Below, in pieces: positions 862 through 1,831 of a stretch of DNA of 4,433 nucleotides. Source of the DNA: a virus (taxonomy: Duplodnaviria > Heunggongvirae > Uroviricota > Caudoviricetes); the IMG/VR virus record IMGVR_UViG_2541047441_000013, positions 1 through 4,433 of that record; one strand, given 5' to 3'. The first letter of the stretch is position 1. Every line of letters starts with the position of its first letter. Under the pieces are notes generated by a model that saw only the letters and a list, made by a program, of their open reading frames with translations, did no database searches and was not told where the DNA came from. Both the position numbers and the translations under genes were made by a program.

Positions 862-917
862 GGATATATAGTGATGAGGGTTATGTTTTCTGTGTTTATA
901 ATTAACATGTTTATTTT

Positions 918-947
918 TTGATGGTCATGTATTGTGGAAGGTAGATA
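918..947 (+). promoter_or_regulatory. Candidate sigma70 promoter in the AT-rich Q-distal spacer (possible pR'-equivalent or moron promoter)
   Basis: TTGATG (918-923), 18-bp spacer, TAGATA (942-947). Hexamers identified by eye in very AT-rich DNA, so false-positive risk is high. Confidence 0.2.
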
Positions 948-972
948 AAATGTTGCCTGGTGAATTGAAAAT

Positions 973-985
973 ATTGATAATCAAT
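973..985. promoter_or_regulatory. Perfect 13-bp palindrome ATTGATAATCAAT, candidate operator 28 bp upstream of the CPBP gene start
   Basis: ATTGAT (973-978), A (979), ATCAAT (980-985) is exactly self-complementary. Surrounding 19-mer 970-988 matches the Fur-box consensus GATAATGATAATCATTATC at 14 of 19 positions (hand alignment; AT-rich context). Confidence 0.3.
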
Positions 986-1012
986 CTTCATCATTAAATA
1001 AAAGGAGTGCTT

Positions 1013-1831
1013 ATGTGGATTGTGTTAGTACTGTCACTGTCAACTCTCAGTTGGCATAAGGTAGTGGCTTTTTCATTGTTGACGGTGTCTGTTGTCCTGG
1101 CTGTGCTTAATGATATTATTGATTGGTCGGTGTTATTTTTTGTTGCTACAATCGTTTTTTTTATTATTTTGAAGTTCAACTGGAAATATAACGCCTGGGC
1201 TAAATCTATATATGAAGTTGGCATAGTTTTATCAGCCATAGCATTATTTTTCCATCTATGGCCAGGGTTTCACAATCCTGTAGTGCTAAATTCTGTTACT
1301 GTTGGCCCTCAAAGTACTCCCTATACAATGTATTTTAATTTTGATAAAGCGCTGGTGCCATTTTTGTTAGTCCTGTGTACATCTTCTTTGTTTAAAAAAG
1401 AAGTAAAATCAGAAGTGTCTTTGTGGAAGTGGGGGGCTCTGTCGCTCTCTGTTCCTCTTATCCTGTTTTTGGCTGTTTTTTTTGGTGGATTAAAGCCAGA
1501 GATTCATTTTCCTGAGTGGTTGCCAGAGTTTATATTGGCTAATTTGTTTTTTGTGTCTCTGGCAGAGGAATCATTATTTAGAGGGTATATTCAATCACGG
1601 CTATCAGAAGTAACGTCTCCATTGGTTGCATTAATTGTGGCGGCTTTGTTGTTTGGTTTTTATCACTATTCAGGTGGTGCTTTACTTGTATTATTTGCCA
1701 CGTTATCTGGTGTTGTGTATGGATTGTCATGGATGTGGAGTGGGCGTTTGTGGGTTGCCACCCTTTTCCATTTTGGTTTGAATCTGTGTCACTTGTTATT
1801 CTTTACCTATCCATTTTTAAAACATAATTGA
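1013..1831 (+). CDS. CPBP-family intramembrane metalloprotease (CAAX protease / Abi, Pfam PF02517-like), polytopic membrane protein, about 272 aa
   Basis: ORF track 1007-1831. Preferred start is ATG 1013 with SD AAGGAG (1002-1007) 5 nt upstream. Three CPBP signature motifs occur in canonical order and spacing: EExxxR = AEESLFR (1562-1582), FxxxH = FGFYH (1652-1666), HxxxN = HFGLN (1769-1783). Multiple long hydrophobic stretches. Coding strand is T-rich with rare codons (ATA Ile at 1208, 1223, 1238; AGA Arg at 1580). Confidence 0.8.
   Translation: MWIVLVLSLSTLSWHKVVAFSLLTVSVVLAVLNDIIDWSVLFFVATIVFFIILKFNWKYNAWAKSIYEVGIVLSAIALFFHLWPGFHNPVVLNSVTVGPQSTPYTMYFNFDKALVPFLLVLCTSSLFKKEVKSEVSLWKWGALSLSVPLILFLAVFFGGLKPEIHFPEWLPEFILANLFFVSLAEESLFRGYIQSRLSEVTSPLVALIVAALLFGFYHYSGGALLVLFATLSGVVYGLSWMWSGRLWVATLFHFGLNLCHLLFFTYPFLKHN

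Follow-up and report, generated by a model that had tools for sequence, protein, structure and literature searches.

The founding member of the CPBP family (PF02517) is Rce1, the CAAX prenyl protease 2, for which the structure of MmRce1 has been solved (4CAD). Other described members include SpdC/LyrA of Staphylococcus aureus (6U0O), a Gram-positive protein whose partner enzyme is the SagB glucosaminidase, and the myxosortases (MrtX/MrtC/MrtP and relatives), which are Gram-negative CPBP proteases. The Abi-type bacteriocin self-immunity proteins of lactic acid bacteria (Pln and Skk loci) belong to the same Pfam family, with the same motif requirement as the phage protein described here, and their genes lie inside bacteriocin operons; PF02517 itself was historically labelled "Abi". 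As for the phage setting, phage 434B owes its Q and lysis region to DLP12, from which they were transferred together with the late promoter as one working unit (PMC9119081). In Stx phages, stx and the sRNA StxS are Q-proximal cargo that tracks the Q allele (PMC7547250).

Here, we analyzed a 4,433-nt stretch of DNA from a Caudoviricetes record (IMG/VR IMGVR_UViG_2541047441_000013, positions 1 to 4,433; hereafter the window). In the window, the plus-strand reading frame at 1013–1831 encodes a CPBP/Rce1-like intramembrane glutamic protease of 272 aa, corresponding to ECs_1085 of the Sakai prophage Sp4 (WP_000265265.1). A program-made list of reading frames gave GTG 1007 as the start. Because every homologue opens with MW, ATG 1013, which is preceded by the ribosome-binding site AAGGAG at 1001–1006, was adopted instead. 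The match to the PF02517 profile that the preliminary description had expected was obtained (E=1.4e-19, 70.6 bits versus a gathering cutoff of 22.4), covering residues 169–258. The three CPBP motifs were likewise present in order, namely EESLFR at residue 185, FGFYH at 214, and HFGLN at 253. In an alignment of 47 homologues with a mean identity of ~50%, E185, E186, R190, F214, H218, and H253 were invariant, and N257 was kept in at least 90% of the sequences. The alignment also revealed a conserved N-terminal block outside the Pfam model, composed of PGFHN (84–88), GPxS (98–101), and YNFDKAxxPF (107–117).

An AlphaFold2 model was then built from the 47-homologue alignment. The model was of very high confidence (pLDDT 95.6, pTM 0.92) and consisted mostly of long helices. 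According to its DSSP assignment, E185 and E186 are predicted to sit 15–16 residues into helix 170–198, H253 and N257 in the middle of helix 246–263, and H218 at the end of helix 203–217, each in a hydrophobic segment. Thus, the Pfam match, the alignment, and the predicted model agree with the earlier proposal: the gene encodes a CPBP/Rce1-like intramembrane protease, and its catalytic motifs are intact and lie on predicted membrane helices. The 1013–1831 product is an established member of the CPBP family, and the most economical interpretation is that it is active as an enzyme.

A sequence search of the PDB returned no match to the protein; fold searches showed that the model has the fold common to the solved CPBP family members. 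Its identity to Rce1 was 17%. Compared with Rce1, only residues 169–258 match the Pfam core, and the N-terminal half of the phage protein has its own conserved block. We know of no prenylated CAAX substrates in E. coli. Identity to SpdC/LyrA was 14%, and unlike SpdC/LyrA, the phage gene has no evident partner. The NCBIfam Mrt models matched the protein weakly, at 19–33 bits against cutoffs of 75–325 (e.g., 33 versus 250 and 27 versus 195), and membership in the myxosortases was ruled out because all scores were far below these cutoffs.

The identity of the gene was already known as an annotation. RefSeq lists the protein as "CPBP family intramembrane glutamic endopeptidase", ECs_1085 of O157:H7 Sakai is annotated as "phage CAAX amino terminal protease family protein", and the protein falls in a PHROG of unknown function. 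What is added here is the anatomy of its cassette and its evolutionary origin. A literature search found no publication mentioning ECs1085, NP_309112, or WP_000265265 and no link between CAAX proteases and superinfection exclusion; the literature on CPBP and prophages comprised Gram-positive or incidental mentions alone. Two further leads were irrelevant, since CPBP was a locus-tag prefix in one and the other mentions just PrsW. No ECs_1085 entry was present in the supplements of the EHEC iModulon paper, and the searches turned up no record of an ECs_1085 transcript, protein, or phenotype. The statement that no function had been assigned in the prophage context is consistent with this search, which retrieved no published function. 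The DNA of 862–1900 was present in 572 of 5426 complete E. coli genomes, at 99% identity or more in 547 of them, and these carriers, about one genome in ten, were mainly O157:H7, O111, and O55:H7 pathogens.

We next compared the position of the gene across loci. The antiterminator gene Q at 490–861 (plus strand) is of the QuuD/DLP12 type (PF06530; Pfam E=8.7e-52); its product is ~84–85% identical in amino acids to Q of phages 434B, mEp332, and ev207 and distantly matches the solved structure of Q21 (6p18, E=1e-7). As previously noted, the CPBP gene is cargo directly downstream of Q, with the Q stop at 861, a 151-nt spacer, and the ATG at 1013. The same arrangement was observed in 48 loci of the phage-borne lineage (47 examined first plus one further 60% allele), where a PF06530 Q lay 122–158 nt upstream of CPBP in all but one. 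In the exception, locus L020 from a pig E. coli isolate, IS1A occupies the spacer (L020 2237–3168) and the CPBP gene is frameshifted; this was the sole locus with a disrupted Q–CPBP spacer. Moreover, the divergence of Q and that of CPBP ran in parallel among the phage alleles. One IMG/VR contig (L065) carries a 55% identical CPBP homologue behind a Q of the lambda type (PF03589), whose sequence is unrelated to that of the PF06530 Q. In this contig, Q is directly followed by a promoter-like site and a strong terminator, and CPBP starts ~180 nt past the terminator. With this homologue lying past tR′, the location of CPBP with respect to PR′ is not conserved, whereas its placement between Q and the lysis genes is. 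In INPHARED, 401 sequenced phages carried the Q family of the window, 197 of them at 80–90% identity, and blastn and tblastn found the CPBP gene in none of 50,697 sequenced phage records. The CPBP-bearing cassette has been seen so far only in prophages and predicted viral contigs.

Base composition was then compared along the window. The GC content was 0.285 in the spacer (862–1012), 0.377 in the CPBP gene, and ~0.53 in rusA and the methylase gene. Q had a GC content of 0.417, and its GC3 of 0.355 was no different from the 0.352 of CPBP. The T-richness of the CPBP gene came mostly from 25 TTT and 30 TTA/TTG codons, and the gene contains four ATA codons and one AGA codon. Accordingly, the unusual composition that had been reported was reproduced for the T-rich reading frame, the AT-rich spacer, and the low GC relative to rusA and the methylase gene, but AGA, used once, is not enriched, and the claimed difference from Q is absent. 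Two phage tRNA genes on the plus strand of the window, at 3594–3669 and 3750–3826, have the anticodons CAT and TCT, which can be set beside the ATA and AGA counts; the CAT tRNA of Sakai Sp4 (ileZ1) is annotated as tRNA-Ile.

An O157 prophage in which a DUF1133 protein replaces Q (L019) matched the window at 1–475 and 1986–4433 only, and it carries its own hairpin followed by T7 where the homology resumes at 1986. Because the homology is limited to these two segments, the exchanged unit was defined as 476–1985, an antitermination cassette composed of Q, the spacer, CPBP, and the probable PR′/tR′ stem, in accordance with the composition profile and the per-gene GC. Thus, the atypical low-GC unit is the whole block of Q, spacer, and CPBP, exchanged as one cassette. 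The preliminary description had inferred that CPBP was acquired separately from Q; the shared low GC, the Q linkage in 48 loci, the parallel divergence, and the joint cassette argue against this. If Q and its binding site must remain together, cargo lying between them would be co-inherited; this would explain the strict linkage to Q, the low GC common to both genes, and breakpoints that take in the whole cassette.

On a larger scale, window positions 1–2394 were 99.96% identical to an Sp4-type prophage, and 1986–4433 were 97.7% identical to a different O157 prophage with a DUF1133 protein replacing Q. By these alignments, the window is a recombinant mosaic, and its whole arrangement was found at 80% coverage or more in none of the complete E. 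coli genomes. Its right part also contains an STnc100 sRNA gene at 3936–4144 (plus strand; Rfam, 175 bits, above the gathering score) and, adjoining it in antisense, a gene for the anti-GcvB sRNA AgvB at 4146–4205 (minus strand; 56.6 bits versus a cutoff of 56). A 65-aa reading frame at 2118–2319 (plus strand) showed a weak, sub-threshold match to a TrmB-like HTH and a full match to phrog_331. It is intact in the window and annotated as frameshifted in the Sp4-type prophage; its own terminator, at 2302–2319, overlaps its 3′ end. In a prophage carrying the 83% identical CPBP allele (L008), a three-gene insert upstream of hok (L008 467–3011; Pfam families CTD10, MC6, and DUF2326) looks like a conflict or defence module.

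Subsequently, the signals flanking the CPBP gene were examined. The AT-rich spacer at 862–1012 contains a candidate CPBP promoter and the ribosome-binding site; a promoter scan placed the candidate at TTGCCT (953–958) and GATAAT (976–981), separated by 17 nt, and a terminator scan found no terminator in 862–1012. The positional equivalent is TTGTCA-17-GATAAT (10 of 12 matches) in the 83% allele and ATGACA-17-TATTGT in the 62% allele, and none was found upstream of CPBP in the 59% allele. In three of four diverged lineages, the promoter-like site ended 32–35 nt ahead of the ATG. Promoter-like hexamers across 700–2600 numbered 9 against an expected 4.9 ± 2.3, which is only modestly above chance, and in such AT-rich DNA the promoter-like site is weak evidence. 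We consider that the CPBP gene probably has its own sigma-70 promoter (953–981), which could allow its expression in the lysogen. Since a terminator is absent between Q and CPBP, the two genes would also be co-transcribed, from the early-right transcript after induction. The sole terminator downstream of CPBP belongs to the conserved unit described below; transcripts would stop at its hairpin (1973–1994) unless antiterminated.

That unit, termed module B, is located on the plus strand downstream of the CPBP gene. Module B proper (1912–1953) comprises the palindrome TTTACGTACGTAAA at 1912–1925, within which TTTACG resembles a −35 element, a −10-like TATGCT at 1934–1939, and the invariant sequence GTTAAGAGTGGTTA at 1940–1953. 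It is followed by an intrinsic terminator at 1973–1994, probably tR′, which consists of a stem at 1973–1988 and a T-run according to the terminator scan. This terminator is the first after Q and CPBP and forms the right edge of the exchangeable cassette, and a perfect-stem hairpin with differing loops was observed ~140 nt past the CPBP stop in most loci. Alignment showed that ~90 nt ending at the terminator are conserved both in CPBP cassettes and in CPBP-less cassettes with an 81% identical Q. Module B was also kept in the 62% allele, whose 3′ untranslated region is otherwise unrelated. At least its palindrome was present in every checked locus that had the PF06530 Q family and enough downstream sequence, and module B was absent from the DUF1133 cassette. 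In locus L010, module B received a sigma-70 promoter score. Two viable phages, mEp332 and ev207, carry module B ~200 nt upstream of the holin gene S and ~1.6 kb from Q; a reverse-strand porin gene fills the interval from Q to module B, and no promoter–terminator unit was found directly after Q.

Judging from this conservation, module B is quite likely the cognate late promoter PR′ with the Q-loading region, together with tR′. The known PR′/QBE sequence of phage 21 was not transferred to the window, because the window Q is just a distant relative of Q21 (E=1e-7), and only the general cassette logic was taken from that phage. Two features count against the assignment of module B as PR′: a palindrome dominates it, although the QBE solved for Q21 consists of a direct repeat, and loci L016 and L017 have an additional promoter–terminator unit immediately behind Q. 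Because the probable PR′/tR′ at 1912–1994 lies downstream of the CPBP gene, the gene is placed between Q and PR′; it is probably upstream of PR′ and outside the late operon. The preliminary description had framed the gene as late-region cargo, and this framing was not retained, since the conserved promoter–terminator unit follows the gene and the stx-type position after tR′ apparently does not apply to it. This comparison makes two points testable, namely the loading site of QuuD-type Q proteins and the expression with Q of cargo that lies between the antiterminator and its target.

Two other observations concern related elements. In the CPBP-less loci L016 and L017, the slot between Q and module B holds an ORF6N remnant. 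These loci also have a second promoter–terminator unit directly after Q (L016 4401–4506, also in L017), in which a near-consensus promoter, TTGACC-18-TATATT, starts 5 nt past the Q stop and a terminator follows ~60 nt on. In a prophage of strain PV15-279 (L001), a sequence nearly identical to the module B palindrome (TTTACGATCGTAAA) is located at the integrase end (1814–1827), which may be coincidence.

The origin of the gene was traced through its relatives. Proteins of the same length and ~50% identity are widespread in Enterobacterales, and at least 330 genomes, counted as one per species, encode one. In the best 80 of these species-representative loci, neither a Q of either family nor rusA or DUF968 was found within 3 kb (0 of 80), and the GC content of the gene equaled that of its flanks (median difference 0.001). 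In Enterobacter, Dickeya, and Providencia, the gene stands alone among unrelated housekeeping genes, and no conserved neighbours that might hint at function were found in these genera or among the best 80 loci. In a neighbor-joining tree, the chromosomal genes grouped roughly by bacterial family and the Q-linked phage copies were monophyletic, with a bootstrap of 97/100, or 93/100 when the lambda-Q-linked L065 homologue was added. The phage alleles were 58–96% identical with dN/dS of 0.11–0.23 and saturated dS, indicating that the phage copies are under purifying selection. The E. coli homologues found were phage copies only; no non-phage E. coli copy of the subfamily was found. Taken together, the solitary chromosomal relatives, the phage monophyly, and the low dN/dS suggest that the phage gene is an old, single capture of a native solitary chromosomal Enterobacterales gene that has been kept functional in phages. 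The protein belongs to an uncharacterised subfamily of Enterobacterales whose members are normally solitary chromosomal genes.

Based on these results, we propose, with somewhat better than even confidence, that the gene encodes a catalytically competent inner-membrane protease that was captured once, is held between Q and its probable cognate PR′, and, as the weakest step of this reading, cleaves a membrane or envelope substrate as a lysogenic-conversion trait. The phage and chromosomal copies probably share a substrate type because they share the catalytic residues and the subfamily-specific block, and this substrate would be an enterobacterial membrane or envelope component or an external agent common to enterobacteria. 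Cleavage of a membrane or envelope substrate common to enterobacteria could give E. coli an envelope-related conversion trait, for which the porin in the same DLP12-type slot offers a parallel. If the protease alters the envelope, phage susceptibility, or toxin sensitivity, it would be a lysogenic-conversion factor in EHEC. On our analysis, the envelope-related role is favoured, with low confidence, over its main rivals, superinfection exclusion and orphan bacteriocin immunity. The preliminary description had counted Abi-type exclusion and bacteriocin immunity among the candidate roles, and neither gained specific support from the searches described below.

A role in phage defence, in which the membrane protease blocks the entry of incoming phage DNA or kills the infected cell and thereby protects the lysogen, is possible though unlikely. 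In its favour, prophages carry the gene as cargo beside the lysis genes, on the side of Q, purifying selection acts on it, it stays intact in a degraded prophage, its product is an inner-membrane protein like many Sie proteins, and its family once bore the name "Abi". However, no family in the defence models of PADLOC-DB 2.0 matched the protein at E≤0.01, and a partner or sensor gene is absent. In addition, its relatives are native, solitary, and apparently vertical chromosomal genes, unlike a mobile defence gene, and none of the 50,697 sequenced phages carries it although 401 have the Q family.

Alternatively, the one-time captured host protease may have been kept beside the antiterminator across two unrelated Q families since its co-expression with Q matters, making it a phage-timed protease in development or competition. 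We regard this as rather doubtful. Such a protease might tune the lysis proteins or cleave an injection or receptor component. If so, no CPBP enzyme before it would have been assigned a definite part in the life cycle of a phage.

Less credence still is given to immunity against a membrane-targeting bacteriocin or toxin, analogous to the self-immunity that Abi/CPBP proteins provide in Gram-positive bacteriocin loci. In its favour, the gene has kept its CPBP motifs intact, and Kjos et al. reportedly showed in 2010 that Abi-type immunity in lactic acid bacteria depends on these motifs. A periplasmic location is also predicted for the conserved block at residues 80–113, where it could encounter a peptide from outside the cell. 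In contrast to the Pln and Skk genes, the phage gene has no bacteriocin, microcin, or toxin gene beside it in the window, and none was found in the phage and chromosomal loci examined, so it would be an orphan immunity gene.

It is very improbable that CPBP is instead the first gene of the Q-dependent late transcript, with PR′ in 862–1012 and tR′ at 1973–1994, expressed constitutively in lysogens as a protein-coding counterpart of StxS. In EHEC lysogens, PR′ is constitutively active and terminated at tR′, and the PR′–tR′ product varies together with Q (PMC7547250). In the window, the terminator at 1973 is the first one past Q, and the cassette ends at the 1973–1994 hairpin. Nevertheless, module B, downstream of CPBP, is the sole promoter–terminator unit common to all cassettes with a PF06530 Q, and in viable phages it adjoins the holin gene far from Q. 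Furthermore, no conservation of the spacer was seen among CPBP alleles, or when CPBP-bearing cassettes were set against CPBP-less ones whose Q is 81% identical. A PR′ in the spacer had been our initial working hypothesis and was rejected once module B was found downstream of the gene and beside the holin gene. Least probable of all is a role without catalysis, as a scaffold or regulator of the kind proposed for S. aureus SpdC with the SagB glucosaminidase, since the invariance of all catalytic residues across 47 sequences at ~50% identity is hard to explain without catalysis and SpdC is only 14% identical.

Finally, a putative envelope-acting protease held between Q and its probable target can be compared with the cargo of known phages. 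The nmpC/ompC porin moron of DLP12, mEp332, and ev207 occupies the same slot, from a QuuD-type Q to module B and the holin gene, and is likewise phage cargo encoding an envelope protein. However, the porin is an unrelated protein encoded on the opposite strand with its own terminators, whereas the CPBP gene is co-directional with Q and no terminator separates them. Similarly, stx and StxS resemble CPBP in being Q-proximal cargo that follows the Q allele, yet StxS lies between PR′ and tR′ and stx after tR′, while the CPBP gene of the window probably precedes PR′ and only the L065 homologue lies after tR′.
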